Source: an uncultured Eubacteriales bacterium
GTDB lineage: Bacteria > Bacillota > Clostridia > Christensenellales > CAG-138
Assembly (NCBI GenBank): GCA_900549955.1
Contig: URQH01000006.1
Span: forward strand, 4,116 to 68,115
DNA: 64,000 nt
Direction of reading: 5' to 3'
The notes under the pieces are model-generated. The model was not told where the DNA came from. It worked only from the letters and a program-made list of their open reading frames with translations, and ran no database searches. Every line of letters starts with the position of its first letter. The stretch's first letter is position 1. This document shows positions 1 through 7,472 of this stretch, in pieces. Made by a program: the position numbers and the translations under genes.

Positions 1-97
1 ATCGCCGGGGCCGGCAGTTGCCCGCGCAGAGCCGCGCGGCTTGCCCGTCCCCGCCCGGGAAAGGGTGTGCCGCCAAGGCGGCGCCGGCGCTTTTTCC

Positions 98-2386
98 ATG
101 GCTTTTGAGATACGGGATACCACGCTCATACGCTACCTGCCGGACACGGACGCCGCCAGCGTCACCGTGCCCGAGGGCGTGCTGCGCATTGGCGAAGAGG
201 CCTTTGCCGGTTGTGCCGGGCTGGAAGAAGTGATTCTGCCGCGCGGCGCTTTTGCGGTGGGCGCCTCGGCGTTTGCCGGATGCCCGGACCTCGTGTCGGT
301 CGTGCTGCCGGAGGAGATGCGCTCGATCGGCAACAAGGCGTTTTATGACTGTGCTTCGCTCCGGTCCGTCAACATGCCGGACACGCTGGAGGAGATCGGC
401 GACGAGGCCTTTGGCGGCTGCGTGTCGATCCGCGGCGCGGCGCTGCCGGGCGGGCTGGTGCGGCTGGGCCACAGCGTGTGCCACGGCTGCAGCGGGCTGC
501 TCGCCGCGCAGTTTCCGGACGGGATCTCGGACGTCGGAGACTATTTTTTCTGGGGTTGCTCGTCGCTGCAGTTCGTGCGCCTGCCGCGGCAGGCAAGGCG
601 CATCGGCGTCTATGCCTTTTACGGGTGCCGGTCGCTCCGGGATCTGCGCCTGCCGGAGAGTGTGCGGGAAATCGGCTACAGCGCGTTCTCCTACTGCGAA
701 TCCCTCCGCGGTATCGCCCTGCCGGAAGGCATCGAGCAGGTGGGCGACTACCTGTTCTGGAACTGCGCGTCCCTCCGCGCCGTCGCGCTGCCGGGCAGCC
801 TGCGCGCCGTCGGCACGCGCGCGTTCAACGGGTGCACGGCGCTTGCGGAGCTGCGCATGCACGACGGGCTGGAACAGATCGGCGACCATGCGTTTGACGG
901 CTGCGCCGCGCTGCGGGACGTCCGCCTGCCGGACAGCGTCGCCACCATTGGTGCGCACGCCTTTGCCGGCTGCCGCGCGCTCCGGCAGCTGCATCTGCCG
1001 GACCGCCTGACCGAGCTGCGCGACGGCCTGTGCAAGGGCTGCTCGTCGCTTACGGACGTGCAAATGCCTTCCGCCCTGCGCCGGCTTGGCCGCGAGGCCT
1101 TTGCCGGGTGCAGCCGCTTGGAGCGCGCAACGCTGCCTGCGACGGCCACGGAGGCCGGCCCCGCCGCCTTTTCCGGGTGCGCCTCGCTGCGCGCCATCGC
1201 GCTGCCGGCGGGCACGCAGGCCGTGAGCGAGCGGGAGTTTGCCCACTGCGCCGCCCTCGAGCGGATCGACCTGCCGCCGAGCGTCACGGCCATTGGCGAC
1301 GACGCGTTTTCCGGCTGTGCCGCGCTGCGGGAAGCGCCGCTGAGCGCGCACATCCGCCAGCTGGGCGCCGGCGTCTTCTCCGGCTGCACCGCACTGGAGG
1401 CGGCCGCGGTGCCGGCCGGCCTGCCGTCGCTGCCGGACCGCCTGTTTGAGGGCTGTACTTCGCTCCGGGAGCTCCGCCTGCCGGCGTCGGTAACGGGCAT
1501 TGGCGCGCGTGCGCTGGCGGACTGCACCGCCCTCCAAACGCTTTCGCTGCCCGCCGGGCTGTGCCGGCTGGACGAGGAGGCCTTTGCCGGGAGCGGGCTC
1601 GTGGAGCCGTCGCTGCCGCACGGCGTCACAGCCCTCGGCGACGGGCTGTTTGCCGGATGCGCTTCGCTCACGCGCGTCCACCTCCCGCCGGATCTGCGCG
1701 CAGTCGGCGCGCGCGCCTTTTTCCGCTGCCGCGCCCTGACGGAACTGCATTTGCCTGACAGTGTGGAGGCGGTGGGCGCCGGCGCGTTTTACGGCTGCGA
1801 CGCGCTGGAGCGGCTCTCCCTGGCAGACGGCATCCAGGAAATGGAACGCTCGCCCTTTTCGCTGCCCGGGTACGACCTGTTCTGGAAGGTGCCCATGCGC
1901 CGTATCACGATCCGCTTTGCCGCTGCAGCCGACGGCCTGCCGCTGGTGGACGTGCCCATCCCGGCCTGCGACGACATGCATCAGATGTTTGCCCTGGGCT
2001 ATTACGAACTGCTGGCCGCCTCGCCGCACGGGCCGTTCGACTTCCCGGCATACGACGAGCTGTTCCGGCACCGGGAGTCCGATCTGACACGGTGCGTCAT
2101 CGCGCTGTCGCGTCTCGCCTGCCCCAAGCACCTGCAGGAGGAGCCGCGCGCCCGGTACCTGGCCTTTTTGCGGCGCCACGGCGCCACGGCGCTCTCCATC
2201 ATCGGGCAGCTGCAAAAGCCCGGCTGGATGACGCTGCTGGAGCAGGCCGGCGCCATCCGGCCGGACAACATCGACATGCTGCTCGAGCTGGCGGCGCGGA
2301 TCGGCTCGGCCGAAATCACCGCCTACCTGCTCGAATACCAGAGCCGGGACATCGGCTTTTCGCCGTCGTCCCGCTGGTCGCTTTGA
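98..2386 (+). CDS. Leucine-rich repeat protein (BspA / LRR_5 type), cytoplasmic, with a ~190-aa non-LRR C-terminus
   Basis: ORF 41..2386. Roughly two dozen tandem ~23-aa units of the form LxxVxLPxxLxxIGxxAFxGCxxL. No signal peptide or TM at the N-terminus (MAFEIRDTTLIRYLPDTD...). I prefer ATG 98 over TTG 41, but neither has a clear RBS, so the start is uncertain. Confidence 0.8.
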   Translation: MAFEIRDTTLIRYLPDTDAASVTVPEGVLRIGEEAFAGCAGLEEVILPRGAFAVGASAFAGCPDLVSVVLPEEMRSIGNKAFYDCASLRSVNMPDTLEEIGDEAFGGCVSIRGAALPGGLVRLGHSVCHGCSGLLAAQFPDGISDVGDYFFWGCSSLQFVRLPRQARRIGVYAFYGCRSLRDLRLPESVREIGYSAFSYCESLRGIALPEGIEQVGDYLFWNCASLRAVALPGSLRAVGTRAFNGCTALAELRMHDGLEQIGDHAFDGCAALRDVRLPDSVATIGAHAFAGCRALRQLHLPDRLTELRDGLCKGCSSLTDVQMPSALRRLGREAFAGCSRLERATLPATATEAGPAAFSGCASLRAIALPAGTQAVSEREFAHCAALERIDLPPSVTAIGDDAFSGCAALREAPLSAHIRQLGAGVFSGCTALEAAAVPAGLPSLPDRLFEGCTSLRELRLPASVTGIGARALADCTALQTLSLPAGLCRLDEEAFAGSGLVEPSLPHGVTALGDGLFAGCASLTRVHLPPDLRAVGARAFFRCRALTELHLPDSVEAVGAGAFYGCDALERLSLADGIQEMERSPFSLPGYDLFWKVPMRRITIRFAAAADGLPLVDVPIPACDDMHQMFALGYYELLAASPHGPFDFPAYDELFRHRESDLTRCVIALSRLACPKHLQEEPRARYLAFLRRHGATALSIIGQLQKPGWMTLLEQAGAIRPDNIDMLLELAARIGSAEITAYLLEYQSRDIGFSPSSRWSL

Positions 2387-2411
2387 CATGGGACGGCACC
2401 AAGGAGGGAAC

Positions 2412-4250
2412 ATGGAGCACAACGATGAGCGGGACCGCCGGATCGACGCGCTGGCGCGGGACGTGCTGCTACTGTCGCGCAACACGCTGCTGGTCCATCT
2501 GCGCTTCCTGGACGCGGCGCTGAGCCGCTTCACCTTCGAGCGCAGCGACGACGGCCACATCGCCACCGACGGGCAGGTGTTCCGCTACAACCCGCGGCAC
2601 GTGCTGCTCTCCTACCGCGACGAACGGGAGGCGCCCACGCGCGACTACCTGCACCTGGTGCTGCACTGCGCGTTTCGCCACGCGTTTGTCGACCCGCGGC
2701 TGGACCGCGCCTGCTGGGACCTGGCCGCCGACATCGCGGTCGAGTGCGCCATCGACAGCCTCGCCCTCCCATGCGTCAACGCCGCCCGCCAGGAGCGGCA
2801 GCAGCCGATCGTGCAGCGGCTCACGCGCGAGGGCGTGCTGCTGACGGCAGAAAAGATCTACAGATATTTCAAAAACGAACGCTGTCTGGACGGCACCGCC
2901 CTGCAGGAGCTGCGGCAGGCCTTCTTTGCCGACGACCACGACCTGTGGTACCAACCCGTGCCCGAGAGCGAGGGCGACGCCGCGCGCGACGCGACAGACC
3001 CCGACGCGCCCGAGGCAGACGTGGACGGGGACGGCGGGCAGACGGACCCCGGCAGGGATGCCGACGGCACGGATGAGGACGAGGCCCCGGAGGAAGGCGC
3101 GCAGGAGACGCCGGACGAAGGCGGCGAGCAGGAGGACGGCGACGCCCCCCGGGATGGCAGCGATGAAGCGCCAGACGAAGGCGGCAAACAGGAGGGCAGC
3201 GACGCCCCGGAGGACGGCGGCGGCGAAACGCCGGACGCGGACGGCGAACAGGAGGACGGCGACGCCCCGGAGGACGGCGGCGGCGAAACGCCGGACGAGG
3301 ACAGCGAGCAGGAGGACGGCGACGCCCCGGAGGACGGCAGCGGCGAAACGCCGGACGCGGAAGATGCCGCCGAGGCGGGCGCGCAGGAGACGCCGGACGT
3401 GGGCGACGCGCCCGTGTCCGCCGGTTATGCCGGCGAGCAGGGCTACGGCCAGCCACAACCCGGCGGCGGCTCCGGCGCCGACAACGGCAGCCGCCCGCCG
3501 CTCACACGCGAGGAGCTGGAAGAGCTGTGGAGCGAAATTGCCCGGCACATGCAGGTCGATCTCGACACCGGCAAACAGCAGCGCGGCAGCGGCGCGGGCG
3601 CGATGATGCAAAACCTGCGCGCCGTCACGCGCGAAACCTACGACTATACCGATTTTCTGCGGCGCTTTGCCGTGCCGGGCGAGGCCATGCAGATCAACGA
3701 CGACGAGTTCGACTACATCTACTATACCTATGGCCTGCAGCTGTACGGCAACACGCCGCTGATCGAGCCGCTGGAATACAAGGAAGTGCGGCGCATCCGC
3801 GAATTCGTCATCGCCATCGATACCTCCGGTTCCGTCAAGGGCGACGAGGTGCAGCGCTTCATCCAGAAGACCTACAACATCCTGCTCGAGGAGGAGAGCT
3901 TTTTTACCAAGATCAACCTGCACATCATCCAGTGCGACGCGGCCATCCAGGAAGTGCAGAAGATCACCTCCCGCGAGGAATTCGACGCCTACCTGGCCGG
4001 CATGACGCTCAAGGGCTTTGGCGGCACGGATTTCCGGCCCGTATTCGCCTACGTGGACCGCATGCTCGCCGAGCGGGAGTTTGTCAACCTCAAGGGGCTC
4101 ATCTACTTTACCGACGGGCAGGGGGTCTATCCCGCGCAGCAGCCCGCCTATGAAACGGCGTTCGTGTTCGTGCGGGACGACTACGAGGTGCCGAAGGTGC
4201 CCGTATGGGCCATCCGGCTCGTGCTCGACCGCGACGACCTGCAGGCGTAA
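2412..4250 (+). CDS. DUF2201-type protein: N-terminal putative metallopeptidase-like domain, long acidic repeat linker, C-terminal VWA domain
   Basis: ORF 2388..4250. Start moved to ATG 2412, preceded by AAGGAGGGAAC. The C-terminus has a MIDAS-like motif (VIAIDTSGSVKGDE). The N-terminus resembles DUF2201_N (YLHLVLHCAFRH). A D/E/G/P-rich region of ~170 aa lies in the middle. It sits directly upstream of an AAA_5 ATPase, the usual MoxR/VWA pairing. Confidence 0.75.
   Translation: MEHNDERDRRIDALARDVLLLSRNTLLVHLRFLDAALSRFTFERSDDGHIATDGQVFRYNPRHVLLSYRDEREAPTRDYLHLVLHCAFRHAFVDPRLDRACWDLAADIAVECAIDSLALPCVNAARQERQQPIVQRLTREGVLLTAEKIYRYFKNERCLDGTALQELRQAFFADDHDLWYQPVPESEGDAARDATDPDAPEADVDGDGGQTDPGRDADGTDEDEAPEEGAQETPDEGGEQEDGDAPRDGSDEAPDEGGKQEGSDAPEDGGGETPDADGEQEDGDAPEDGGGETPDEDSEQEDGDAPEDGSGETPDAEDAAEAGAQETPDVGDAPVSAGYAGEQGYGQPQPGGGSGADNGSRPPLTREELEELWSEIARHMQVDLDTGKQQRGSGAGAMMQNLRAVTRETYDYTDFLRRFAVPGEAMQINDDEFDYIYYTYGLQLYGNTPLIEPLEYKEVRRIREFVIAIDTSGSVKGDEVQRFIQKTYNILLEEESFFTKINLHIIQCDAAIQEVQKITSREEFDAYLAGMTLKGFGGTDFRPVFAYVDRMLAEREFVNLKGLIYFTDGQGVYPAQQPAYETAFVFVRDDYEVPKVPVWAIRLVLDRDDLQA
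3121..3360 (+). repeat. In-frame 60-bp tandem repeat, 4 near-identical copies plus degenerate flanking copies (~3079-3400)
   Basis: Units starting at 3121, 3181, 3241 and 3301 align column by column (gcggcgAaCAGGAGGACGGCGACGCCCCGGAGGACGGCGGCGGCGAAACGCCGGACGNGG). They encode a 20-aa unit, DGEQEDGDAPEDGGGETPDx. Confidence 0.9.
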
Positions 4251-4295
4251 ACGACACGCCGGAACCACCACAACCGGCAGAGAGGGGGAAGCAGC

Positions 4296-5813
4296 ATGAA
4301 CATCAAACAAGCCAAGGAACAGATCAAAAACGCCATGACCGCCTACTTTACCAAGGACGCGTTCGGCAACTACGTCATCCCGATCGAGAAGCAGCGCCCC
4401 GTGCTGCTCATGGGCGCGCCGGGCATCGGCAAGACCTCGATCATGGAGCAGATCGCCTCCGAGCTCGGCGTTGGGCTCGTGTCCTATTCCATGACGCATC
4501 ACACCCGCCAGAGCGCGCTGGGGCTCCCGTTCATCACGCACAAGCTGTACGGCGGCAAGCAGTACGACGTGTCGGAATACACGATGAGCGAGATCATCGC
4601 CTCCGTGTACGACATGATGGAAGATACGGGCGTGCAGGAGGGCATCCTGTTCCTCGACGAGATCAACTGCGTGTCCGAAACGCTCGCGCCGCCCATGCTG
4701 CAGTTCCTGCAATACAAGGTCTTTGGCCGCCACCGCGTGCCGGACGGCTGGATCGTGGTGACCGCCGGCAACCCGCCCGAGTACAACAAGTCCGTGCGCG
4801 AGCTGGACATCGTCACGTGGGACCGGCTCAAGCGGATCGACGTGGAGCCGGATCTCGAAACCTGGCGGGAATATGCCTGGAAAAAGGGCGTGCACGCTTC
4901 CGTGCTCACGTACCTGGCCGCCAAACAGGATGACTTTTATGTGGTGGAATCGGCCGTCGGCGGCAAACTGTTCGTCACGGCCCGCGGCTGGGACGACCTG
5001 TCGGAGATGATCAAGCTGTATGAGCAGCACAACCTGCCCGTGGATGAACGACTGATCGGCCAGTATCTGCAGCATCCGCGCATCGCAAAGGATTTTGCCA
5101 TCTACTACGACCTGTATCGCAAATACCAGTCGGATTACCGCATTGCGGAAATCCTCGACGGGCAGGCCCCGGACGAGGTCAAAAACCGCGCGCGCATGGC
5201 CGGCTTTGACGAGCGGCTGGCGCTGCTGGGGCTGCTGCTGTCCGCCATCACGGCGCACCTGCGCATGAGCGTCGTGGAGGAGGACCGCCTGAGCGCGCTG
5301 CAACAGGCGCTGCGCGAGGTCAAGCAGGCCATACTGGAACGCGGCGCGGAGCCGGTCGCCGCGCTCGACCAGCAGATCGCCGCGCGCCACGACAAGCTAG
5401 ACCGCGGCGCACGCTCCGGCGCGCTTTCGCGCGAGGCGCAGGACGACCTGCGGCAGCAGATCGTCGAACTGCAGGCCTACCGGGACCTGCTGCTGCAGGA
5501 GCAGCCAGAGGATGCGCCCGCGGCGTTTGGCCTGATCCAGGTGCGCTTTGGCCGGCAGGTCGCCGCGTTTGAAGCCGGCGCCGCAAAGACGGGCGAGCGG
5601 CTGTCCAACCTGTTCCGGTTTGTGGAGGCGGTGTTCGGCGAAGGGCAGGAGATGCTGATCCTCGTGACAGAGCTGACGGCCGGCTACTACAGCGCGCGCT
5701 TCATCAGCCGCCACGGCTGCGCCGAGTACTTCGCCCACAACCGGGAACTGCTGTTCTATGAGCGGCAAAAAGAGCTCATCTCGCAGCTGAACGACCTGGA
5801 TATCGAATCTTAA
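4296..5813 (+). CDS. MoxR-like AAA+ ATPase (AAA_5 family) with a long helical C-terminal extension
   Basis: Walker A LLMGAPGIGKTS, Walker B GILFLDEIN, RBS GAGGGGGAAG upstream of ATG 4296. The C-terminal ~250 aa are rich in R/E/L/Q and look coiled-coil-like. Confidence 0.8.
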   Translation: MNIKQAKEQIKNAMTAYFTKDAFGNYVIPIEKQRPVLLMGAPGIGKTSIMEQIASELGVGLVSYSMTHHTRQSALGLPFITHKLYGGKQYDVSEYTMSEIIASVYDMMEDTGVQEGILFLDEINCVSETLAPPMLQFLQYKVFGRHRVPDGWIVVTAGNPPEYNKSVRELDIVTWDRLKRIDVEPDLETWREYAWKKGVHASVLTYLAAKQDDFYVVESAVGGKLFVTARGWDDLSEMIKLYEQHNLPVDERLIGQYLQHPRIAKDFAIYYDLYRKYQSDYRIAEILDGQAPDEVKNRARMAGFDERLALLGLLLSAITAHLRMSVVEEDRLSALQQALREVKQAILERGAEPVAALDQQIAARHDKLDRGARSGALSREAQDDLRQQIVELQAYRDLLLQEQPEDAPAAFGLIQVRFGRQVAAFEAGAAKTGERLSNLFRFVEAVFGEGQEMLILVTELTAGYYSARFISRHGCAEYFAHNRELLFYERQKELISQLNDLDIES

Positions 5814-5874
5814 CCCTGAAACATACGGCTCCCACAGGGGCAATCGGGCCACGAACCGGTTTTGGCGCATCAAG

Positions 5875-5902
5875 AGGCCGTCCGCATGTCTGCGGACGGC
5901 CT
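5875..5902. terminator. Hairpin between the convergent AAA ATPase and glyA genes (putative bidirectional terminator)
   Basis: AGGCCGTCCGCA-tgtc-TGCGGACGGCCT, a perfect 12-bp stem. The flanking T-tracts are weak. Confidence 0.5.
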
Positions 5903-5929
5903 GCTGATTTCGCCTGCCTAAGCGAAGGG

Positions 5930-7183
5930 TTATGCATAGATCGGGAAACGGTCCGTCATCTCCGTGACGATCCGGCGCACCTCCTCGGCGCTGTTGTCAT
6001 AGTCCGTGGCCGTGCGGTAGATGCAATCCGCGATCACATCCATCTCCGCCGTGCCGAGGCCGCGCGTCGTGACGGCCGGCGTGCCGATGCGCACGCCGCT
6101 CGTGACAAACGGCTTTTGCGGATCGTTCGGCACGGTGTTCTTGTTCAGCGTGATATAGACGGTGTCGAGCCGCTTTTCCAGCTCTTTGCCCGTGAGCCCC
6201 AGCCGCCTGAGGTCGAGCAGCAGCAGATGGTTGTCCGTGCCGCCGGAGACCAGATCCATCCCGCGCCGCAACAGCCCCTGTGCCAGCGCCTGCGCGTTTT
6301 CTACAATGCGCCGCTGGTAGTCCGCAAACGCAGGCTGCAGCGCCTCCCGGAAGCAGATGGCCTTTGCGGCGATGACGTGCATGAGCGGCCCGCCCTGCGT
6401 GCCGGGGAATACCGCCTTGTTGATGGCCGGCCCGAGCGCCTCTTTGGCCAGGATCATGCCGCCGCGCGGCCCGCGCAGCGTCTTGTGCGTCGTGGTGGTG
6501 ACCACGTCCGCATAGGGCACGGGGCTCGGATGCACCCCCGCGGCGACCAGGCCCGCGATGTGCGCCATGTCCACCATGAGCAGCGCGCCCACGCCGTGCG
6601 CAATGGCGGCAAACCGTTCGAAGTCGATCACGCGCGGATACGCCGACGCGCCAGCGACGATGAGCTTTGGCCGCACGCGCTCGGCAATGCGCTGCACCTC
6701 GTCATAGTCGATGCGGCCCGTCTCCGGGTCCACGCCGTAGGACTCGAAATGATAGTACCGGCCGGACAGGTTGACCGGCAGGCCGTGGGTCAGGTGCCCG
6801 CCGTTTTGCAGGCTCATGCCCAGCACCGTATCCCCGGGATTGAGCAGCGCAAAATAGACCGCCAGGTTCGCCTGCGCGCCGGAATGCGGCTGGACGTTGG
6901 CAAACTCGGCATGAAACAGCTGTTTGGCGCGCTCAATGGCGAGGTTTTCGACGACGTCCACGTATTCGCACCCGCCATAATACCGCTTCCCGGGATATCC
7001 CTCCGCGTATTTATTGGTCAGCACGCTGCCCATTGCCGCCATGACCGCCGGCGAGGCCAGGTTCTCCGAGGCAATCAGCTCCAGGTTGCGCTGCTGCCGC
7101 TGCAGTTCCCCTTCCATCGCCTCGGCCACGGCAGGGTCGTGCTCCGCAATCAGGCGGAGCGTGTTCACAATGCTCTGTTCCAT
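5930..7183 (-). CDS. glyA: Serine hydroxymethyltransferase
   Basis: 417 aa. Hallmark SHMT sequence: [42 protein letters not shown] ... [16 protein letters not shown] (PLP-binding lysine motif). Confidence 0.97.
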
Positions 7184-7212: not shown

Positions 7213-7472
7213 AAAAAATGCGGGAGCCGCGCCACGCGGGCGCCGCTCCCTTTTACAGGGCCTATACGGCCCGTTGTTCCGTCCGGTACTCTGTCCTTTC
7301 GCCTGAGAGATTCGGCATGCGCCGCGCCACCCGCCGCACACGCCTTGCACCTTCGGCCCCCGCCACGCCGGCGGGCTTCTCCAGAGTCCCCTCCGATTTC
7401 AGTCCTGCCCCATGCGGGGCGCCTGAGAGCGTCATTCCTTCGGCGGGCCATGACGGCCGCTTTCCTGAAAAC
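7213..7472 (-). promoter_or_regulatory. Tandem glycine riboswitch (two aptamers) plus intrinsic terminator in the glyA 5' leader
   Basis: Minus-strand RNA. Aptamer 1: UUCAGGAAAGCGGCC..GGCCCGCCGAAGGAAUGACGCUCUCAGGCG..GGCAGGACUGAA. Aptamer 2: ACUCUGGAGAAGCCCGCC..GGCGGGGGCCGAAGGUGCAAGG...GCCGAAUCUCUCAGGCGAAAGGACAGAGU. Both carry the glycine-riboswitch core (CUCUGGAGA / CCGAAGGxGCAA / CUCUCAGGCxAAAGGACAG) and closing P1 helices. The terminator GGGAGCGGCGCC-cgcgu-GGCGCGGCUCCC + GCAUUUUUUGG (plus 7213-7250) lies ~30 nt before the glyA start. Confidence 0.8.

Follow-up and report, generated by a model that had tools for sequence, protein, structure and literature searches.

The start of a 64,000-nucleotide stretch of DNA from an uncultured Eubacteriales bacterium (Clostridia), hereafter the window, raises the question of why a leucine-rich repeat (LRR) protein of the BspA type, lacking a signal peptide, is encoded directly in front of a VWA protein and a MoxR-like AAA ATPase, and whether the three genes form one system or stand side by side by chance. 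An original prediction had described three same-strand genes separated by 25 and 45 nucleotides (nt) and followed by a hairpin, had likened them to the vWA-MoxR ternary systems of biological conflict and to a split NLR, and had conceded that the linkage might be coincidental. The comparison across Clostridia reported here shows that the trio is a conserved, tightly packed cluster of three protein families with an intact motor and an intact metal-ion-dependent adhesion site (MIDAS). With moderate confidence, we read it as a three-gene operon for an ATP-driven cytoplasmic protein-remodelling machine, in which the repeat protein would be an exchangeable recognition subunit. The features on which this argument turns are the following (coordinates are window positions, lengths are in amino acids, aa):

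98-2386, + strand: gene 1, leaderless repeat protein, 762 aa, first gene of the operon (list of open reading frames, ORFs)
149-1831, + strand: BspA-type LRR_5 repeat array of gene 1, about residues 18-578 (Pfam LRR_5, E 1.2e-123, five stretches)
2084-2356, + strand: T domain of gene 1, helical, residues ~663-753, ~95 residues (iterative hidden Markov model, HMM, search)
2412-4250, + strand: gene 2, VWA protein, 612 aa, made up of DUF2201_N, an acidic linker and DUF2201 (Pfam)
3807-4226, + strand: VWA domain of gene 2 with complete MIDAS, residues 466-605, the DTSGS motif lying at 3819-3833 (Pfam DUF2201)
4296-5813, + strand: gene 3, AAA_5 (MoxR-like) ATPase, 505 aa, with a long helical C-terminal half (Pfam)

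A genome scan with the AAA protein yielded matches in at least 592 species genomes; 80 loci, each time from different Clostridia species, were retained for comparison and span the Oscillospiraceae, Lachnospiraceae, Acutalibacteraceae, Eubacteriaceae, Erysipelotrichaceae, Peptococcaceae and others. These loci were annotated by tblastn and HMM searches, and their flanking ORFs were clustered all-against-all. Three families recurred, namely the AAA protein (80 loci), the VWA protein (73 loci) and LRR-type proteins (67 loci, 117 genes), while the next real family, once antisense shadow ORFs of the same genes had been set aside, was found in 10 loci. The VWA gene was adjacent to and co-directional with the AAA gene in 73 of the 80 loci, the rest being contig ends or cases with the VWA gene beyond the flank. 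Spacing within the clusters was tight, with a median gap of 15 nt and 155 out of 185 gaps measuring ≤ 100 nt. Divergence was uneven between the components: the median identity to the window proteins was 60% for the AAA protein, 66% for the VWA domain, 42% for the N-domain of the VWA protein, and 30% for the LRR protein.

The repeats of gene 1 stop near residue 578 and leave a tail of ~185 aa that has no Pfam match. An iterative HMM search over the 80 loci, seeded with this non-LRR tail, recovered a domain, here called the T domain, which scores 71.6 bits on the window ORF, ends in the consensus ...ELIxxA..G..EITA.LLEYKN, and is present in the LRR proteins of most loci, either at the C-terminus or inside the LRR array. 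It was also found without LRRs, fused to DUF6273, ankyrin repeats or DUF4132. Pfam holds no match for it. Identity between species is ~15–30%, and word-index searches remained near-empty because the domain is too divergent (a single sequence returned one fragment, a 68-sequence alignment nothing). An AlphaFold2 (AF2) model built from the single sequence consists of six helices (predicted local distance difference test, pLDDT, 70–89), for which Foldseek returned only weak TPR-like matches in the PDB; from the sequence pattern we suspect an ankyrin-like helical repeat. Taken together, these searches show a new domain, of a putative docking type, by which the third component of the system can be recognised.

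Linkage was then counted in the 44 fully flanked loci, i.e., those with a VWA gene and at least 2.5 kb on either side of the cluster. A co-directional T-domain gene lay beside the pair in 42 of them (43 if a divergent T-domain copy in locus L026, seen by eye, is included) and a co-directional LRR_5 gene in 36. Copies of the third component were located upstream of the VWA gene (22), between the VWA and AAA genes (34) or downstream of the AAA gene (37), and a single operon carried up to six T-domain paralogues. Since the gene order varies, it is gene content and not synteny that is conserved. Likewise, neither glyA nor pyrG nor the NifX-like gene upstream was syntenic with the cluster in the loci of other species.

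The linkage was also followed in the reverse direction, by a phmmer search of 1.84 billion representatives in which the T domain was the sole query. This search retrieved 110 cluster representatives of 105–2074 aa, in which the T domain was mostly C-terminal; LRR_5 was present in 68 of the 84 that were scanned. Ten T-domain proteins were checked blind to their context. Seven adjoin a VWA gene: six of these sit next to DUF2201_N/DUF2201 and AAA_5 genes (one of them divergently), and one is on a short contig (2.2 kb) whose end holds the first part of a VWA gene. One look-up was uninformative, and the remaining two are weighed below. The neighbourhood check therefore bears out an LRR protein as the conserved partner of the pair, as had been proposed, and the forward and reverse counts together contradict a coincidental linkage.

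Some loci display a richer composition. The expanded cluster of contig L101 (638-11653) encodes a VWA protein, an LRR-T protein, a small DUF4760 protein and an AAA protein, followed by two LRR_5 proteins, one of 1146 aa with DUF6273 and one of 588 aa with BRCT; by these domain assignments it shows further module combinations in the putative third component. T-domain LRR proteins were also seen beside Sel1-repeat and HIRAN-domain genes, namely L095 7355-13312 (1985 aa, with a HEPN_Swt1 gene nearby as well) and L100 3793-6882 (1029 aa); this neighbourhood may represent another setting in which the T domain is used.

Where would such a repeat protein be located? Gene 1 has two PDB relatives that are BspA-like LRR structures, 4fs7 (1.2e-71) and 4gt6 (2.2e-51); it also matches 6mlx (TpLRR) and, in part, the NCBIfam HupY model. 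The same 762-aa product, with its ATG at window position 98, was called in six same-species metagenome contigs, and an in-frame stop is present upstream of the start. Given these six identical calls and the upstream stop, the start of gene 1 lies inside the window, which removes the concern that a secretion signal might have been cut off at the window edge. A hydropathy scan detected no N-terminal hydrophobic segment in the gene 1 product, which is hence taken to lack a signal peptide, and in none of the three window proteins did it detect a signal peptide or a convincing transmembrane segment. The earlier description of a leaderless LRR protein with a long non-LRR tail thus holds. Compared with BspA-type surface adhesins (HupY/LrrG, TpLRR), gene 1 shares the LRR_5 repeat type, but by the hydropathy scan its product has no signal peptide, anchor or transmembrane segment, and unlike them it carries a T domain and belongs to an operon with cytoplasmic ATPase and VWA genes.

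The leaderless state extends to the family. Among the 118 LRR or T-domain ORFs of the 80 loci, only four contained a hydrophobic 19-mer above 2.0, and three of these segments were N-terminal. All three LRR_5 proteins with such an N-terminal segment (L017 12636-15497, L043 580-2796 and L061 8518-10536) lack the T domain and sit at the edges of their clusters. As N-terminal hydrophobic segments are confined to LRR proteins without a T domain, the T-domain LRR proteins are, by prediction, a separate cytoplasmic class apart from the secreted BspA-type proteins. In one same-species contig (L006 2-1312) the LRR gene was called as two ORFs (308 aa, partial, and 72 aa); this split in the tail region suggests a frameshift or an assembly error.

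Gene 2 belongs to the DUF2201 VWA family, matching both DUF2201_N (PF13203; 30.8 bits vs. a cut-off of 23.2) and DUF2201 (PF09967; 58.4 bits vs. 26.4) and possessing a complete MIDAS; no sequence relative was found in the PDB. The DTSGS motif noted earlier proved to be part of an intact site, as the MIDAS residues D470-T-S472-G-S474, T539/D540 and D568 are each at least 90% conserved in 69 relatives. Two further features lie in the N-terminal half of the gene:

2652-2681, + strand: zincin-like metal-binding motif H81-L-V-L-H85-C-A-F-R-H90 (alignment of 69 VWA proteins)
3080-3357, + strand: 60-nt tandem repeat, 4.6 copies with 84% matches, coding for the linker (Tandem Repeats Finder)

In the 69 aligned VWA proteins the first of these reads H81-[IMVLT]-x-x-H85-C-x3-H90, with H81, H85 and H90 invariant, and D107, E111, D174 and H176 of the N-domain are invariant as well. 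Pfam names DUF2201_N a "putative metallopeptidase", but the HExxH of zincins is absent: residue 82 is I, M, V, L or T and never Glu in 69/69 proteins, and because this Glu is replaced family-wide the domain is not a canonical zincin peptidase. Judged by its sequence, the DUF2201_N-type domain probably binds metal. The linker that separates the two gene 2 domains is flexible and acidic, rich in Asp, Glu, Gly and Pro, and far shorter in the VWA proteins of other species. The gene 2 product was called as 612 aa in contigs L002 and L003, and its length varies with the metagenome strain (592, 611 or 612 aa), while the AAA protein of these strains is 100% identical.

The ATPase encoded by gene 3 matches AAA_5 with 30.4 bits (cut-off 22) over model positions 1-138 of 139, and Pfam AAA is also above its cut-off; the AAA_5 model was matched by 60/60 homologues. 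The Walker motifs were found intact, as had been claimed, with Walker A (GAPGIGKT) at residues 40-47 (4413-4436) and Walker B (ILFLDE) at residues 117-122 (4644-4661). Residues G40, G43, G45, K46, T47, D121 and E122 are invariant across the 60 homologues, and a strongly conserved stretch, SYSMTHHTRQSALGLPFI, follows strand 2. The best PDB sequence match is the AAA domain of Midasin (1.4e-8). In the AF2 model (pLDDT 77) the AAA core is followed by ~200 residues of long helices (residues 300-500) and a beta-hairpin (82-91) comes after strand 2, with insert regions of pLDDT below 50.

From the three protein families and their domains we infer a mechanism in which the T domain would be held by the VWA/AAA pair. 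Gene 3 supplies the motor and gene 2 its MIDAS partner. In gene 1 the LRR array is the variable, fast-evolving part and the T domain the constant one, which would serve the pair as a handle. The repeats, whether LRR as in the window or ankyrin, DUF6273 or DUF4132 as in other loci, may bind a target, either a protein or a ligand. ATP hydrolysis by the putative AAA ring, relayed via the VWA/MIDAS contact, would then reshape the repeat protein, or strip or hand over its cargo. The general MoxR-vWA model of Kaur et al. 2020 (PMC7159879) is of this kind: a peptide is captured by the vWA domain and freed by MoxR in an altered conformation. Paralogues within one operon would supply several specificities. 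If the repeats bind the target and the T domain is held by the pair, the LRR protein would be the specificity subunit, i.e., an adaptor or sensor.

Several points weigh against this reading. The physical interaction is a prediction, and the binding partner of the T domain is a guess. The fold of the T domain was modelled from a single sequence and has no PDB match below E 0.1. Adjacent LRR genes are sometimes devoid of a detectable T domain (e.g., in L020 and L052), and in two of the ten blind look-ups the visible surroundings were of the Sel1/HIRAN kind and included neither a VWA nor an AAA gene, which makes the T domain predominantly, not exclusively, tied to the VWA/AAA pair. The motor is also less clearly of the MoxR type than had been assumed. 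The window ATPase scores 22 bits for bpMoxR (PF20030), below the cut-off of 27, AAA_3 (PF07726) matches 1 of 60 relatives, and Foldseek comparison of the ATPase model gave generic AAA+ proteins only, among them p97, ClpX, FtsH, dynein and NorQ. Of the predicted MoxR-type ATPase, the AAA_5/MoxR-like assignment consequently stands and the canonical one does not; by these model matches gene 3 is loosely MoxR. Finally, the same data fit LRR/T proteins as clients of the pair, not adaptors.

This last alternative, which survives best and which we regard as possible though unlikely, sees the AAA/VWA pair as a dedicated chaperone for the LRR/T (as well as ankyrin or DUF6273) proteins and the T domain as a recognition tag; the pair would fold, assemble, metallate or in some other way mature the repeat proteins, or ready them for non-classical export. 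The characterised pairs of a MoxR-class ATPase with a VWA protein are CbbQ-CbbO, NorQ-NorD and RavA-ViaA, to which the eukaryotic Midasin/Rea1 with its own MIDAS domain can be added. CbbQO acts on Rubisco and NorQD on nitric oxide reductase, both clients encoded nearby, so known pairs do serve the kind of neighbour that this alternative requires, and the NorQ-NorD structure 9qh8 was among the Foldseek matches of the ATPase model. The trio has in common with these pairs and with Midasin an AAA_5-type ATPase, here putatively a ring, that would act via a MIDAS-bearing VWA domain on a defined partner protein. It differs from them in that there is no sequence similarity past the AAA core and the ATPase has an extra helical C-terminal half of ~300 aa. 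Its partner, moreover, is an interchangeable family of repeat proteins, whereas theirs is one enzyme or ribosome assembly factor. A constant tag on variable bodies resembles a client-recognition signal, and up to six T-domain paralogues per operon would suit many clients as well as many adaptors. Kaur et al. call the pair chaperone and co-chaperone (PMC7159879). On the other hand, solenoid repeats such as LRR and ankyrin usually fold without dedicated ATPases, all the variable modules are classic binding scaffolds, which suggests recognition of something else, and the proteins have neither a secretion or anchoring signal nor a transporter gene in their clusters.

A comparable arrangement exists in Escherichia coli K-12 (NC_000913 2197410-2210944), where the cluster yehH/yehI-yehK-yehL-yehM-yehP-yehQ places the MoxR-family YehL and the VWA protein YehP beside a large DUF4132 protein (yehI), with YehQ as a SWIM protein; both this cluster and the trio are functionally uncharacterised. 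In the Clostridia locus L022, a protein with DUF4132 and a T domain is likewise encoded next to the AAA gene. Homology was considered and rejected, since the AAA protein has only P-loop similarity to YehL and the VWA protein none detectable to YehP. No T domain was found in any Yeh protein, and yehM and yehQ are extra conserved genes absent from the trio loci. By this comparison the yeh cluster is an architectural parallel only.

The next alternative is an immune or conflict system, in which leaderless LRRs would sense phage or plasmid proteins, the MoxR-like/VWA pair would act as a threshold switch, and the part of effector would fall to the zincin-like domain or to an unlinked factor. We regard it as doubtful. 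It draws on the MoxR-vWA ternary systems, of which the VMAP, iSTAND, FtsH and beta-propeller types were defined by Kaur et al. 2020 (PMC7159879) and iSTAND2 and TERNS3 were added by Kaur et al. 2021 (PMC8195603); the published systems are found for the most part in multicellular bacteria, and their vWA proteins bear effector domains (PMC7159879, PMC8195603). The logic is the same, a conserved pair plus variable recognition repeats (PMC7159879, PMC8195603). Both sets combine an AAA_5/MoxR-kind ATPase, a vWA/MIDAS protein and a third component with variable, fast-evolving modules, and the bpMoxR Pfam model of these systems matches all 60 AAA homologues (E < 1e-3, best 1.6e-7). In the trio, the third component evolves much faster than the core, is often multi-copy and has its binding modules swapped; the operon lies in differing genomic contexts between species, and two T-domain LRR proteins adjoin genes of the HIRAN or HEPN_Swt1 kind, such as conflict islands often contain.

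The differences are nevertheless considerable. The combination of a T domain with LRR_5, ankyrin, DUF6273 or DUF4132 corresponds to none of the published types, so the membership in these systems that had been envisaged does not apply to VMAP, iSTAND, iSTAND2, TERNS3, FtsH or beta-propeller. Instead of a C-terminal effector or effector-associated domain, the VWA protein has an N-terminal zincin-like domain, whose motif is without the catalytic Glu in 69/69 proteins, and the hosts of the trio are unicellular gut Clostridia and not multicellular actinobacteria or cyanobacteria. No effector or toxin domain was found on the trio proteins in Pfam and PADLOC scans. Against PADLOC-DB 2.0 the LRR and VWA proteins gave no match and the AAA protein only a P-loop-level one (IetA, E 6e-6 over residues 30-62). 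Nor does the ATPase belong to the STAND NTPases, and the window flanks are housekeeping genes with no defence island. The LRR protein is 99.8–100% identical between strains of the species. Only 4 matches were obtained among 2.9 million viral contigs, a result on which a phage origin of the genes was also rejected. In contrast to the published systems, the core is highly conserved, 60–66% identical across Clostridia families and present in at least 592 species genomes, which resembles long-term vertical retention and not the patchy spread of defence genes. Given the strong conservation of the core and the lack of an effector, we favour a function in assembly or quality control inside the cell to one in dedicated anti-phage defence. 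Defence is possible, but nothing found here supports it, and a conflict or sensor role is speculation.

Still somewhat less probable is the specific form that such a system would take as a split NLR-like immune receptor, with T-docked LRR, ankyrin or DUF6273 sensors, a MoxR-like/VWA switch, and a response perhaps via the zincin-like domain. If true, this cassette would be a seventh, very widespread MoxR-vWA ternary conflict system. The ATPase is an AAA_5 protein, and its nSTAND3 match is limited to the first 40 model positions (the P-loop); as it is not a STAND NTPase, the likeness to a split NLR is an analogy only. Chance, finally, whereby an ordinary BspA-type LRR gene would have come to lie beside an unrelated VWA/AAA pair, is very improbable indeed, for although LRR_5 genes are plentiful in Clostridia genomes and LRR genes near the clusters sometimes lack a T domain or have a signal peptide, it is at odds with the 42/44 complete loci, the 7/10 reverse look-ups, the tight co-directional spacing, and the fact that gene 1 is the sole LRR_5 or T-domain ORF of the 64-kb window.

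The layout of the operon in the window is consistent with the remodelling machine being encoded as one transcription unit. The gaps of 25 nt (2387-2411) and 45 nt (4251-4295), the gene coordinates and the presence of a downstream hairpin all agreed with the original prediction, and a terminator scan found no terminator-like element in either gap, including the one between genes 1 and 2 where a terminator would have separated the LRR gene from the pair. The signals around the genes are:

2401-2408, + strand: Shine-Dalgarno sequence of gene 2, AAGGAGGG, within the 25-nt gap (sequence reading)
4282-4289, + strand: Shine-Dalgarno sequence of gene 3, GAGGGGGA, within the 45-nt gap (sequence reading)
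5875-5902, no strand: 12-bp hairpin with a G+C-rich stem between the convergent AAA and glyA genes (RNA fold)

The region 5805-5935 folds with -60.4 kcal/mol (z = -4.96 vs. shuffles); the hairpin has no U-tract, and the terminator consensus scan did not call it because the T-run is missing. Upstream, same-species metagenome contigs have an intergenic stretch of ~230 nt 5' of gene 1. In contig L002, the stretch 4020-4118, just upstream of window position 1, holds a T-run after the preceding gene, which encodes a Nitro_FeMo-Co-domain (NifX-like) protein, and an extended -10 element, TGnTATACT, 10–18 nt before window position 1. The position of this putative element implies that gene 1 has a G+C-rich 5' leader of ~100 nt (window 1-97). 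A riboswitch or leader RNA in this 5' untranslated region was considered and discarded, as Rfam gave no match there. On these signals, a separate transcription unit is predicted to begin with gene 1.

The flanking genes on same-species contigs are of the housekeeping kind (glyA, pyrG, miaB-like, rsmE, prmA, holA, and uvrB), and the closest sequenced genome is that of Candidatus Aphodomorpha intestinavium (Clostridia), with an AAA protein 82% identical. Downstream of the operon, a glycine riboswitch aptamer (RF00504, window 7281-7394, - strand, 54.2 bits vs. a gathering score of 32) was located directly upstream of glyA (serine hydroxymethyltransferase, 5930-7183, - strand). The usual target of glycine riboswitches is the glycine-cleavage (gcv) operon.

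The ATPase family to which gene 3 belongs is large. More than 8000 database clusters match it (the best 120 being 63–99% identical), and members are present in the genomes of at least 592 species of gut and rumen Clostridia. No literature on the function of the family was found, and a search for DUF2201, COG3864 and the LRR-VWA-AAA trio returned no description, DUF2201 appearing only in unrelated papers. The trio now gives a context to many leaderless "BspA-like" LRR proteins. Routine annotation labels these as surface adhesins, whereas they would be partners of an ATP-driven machine in the cytoplasm. The T domain can be used to find the other specificity subunits of this putative machine, and the MoxR-vWA ternary theme would be extended to unicellular anaerobes, with a new kind of third component.

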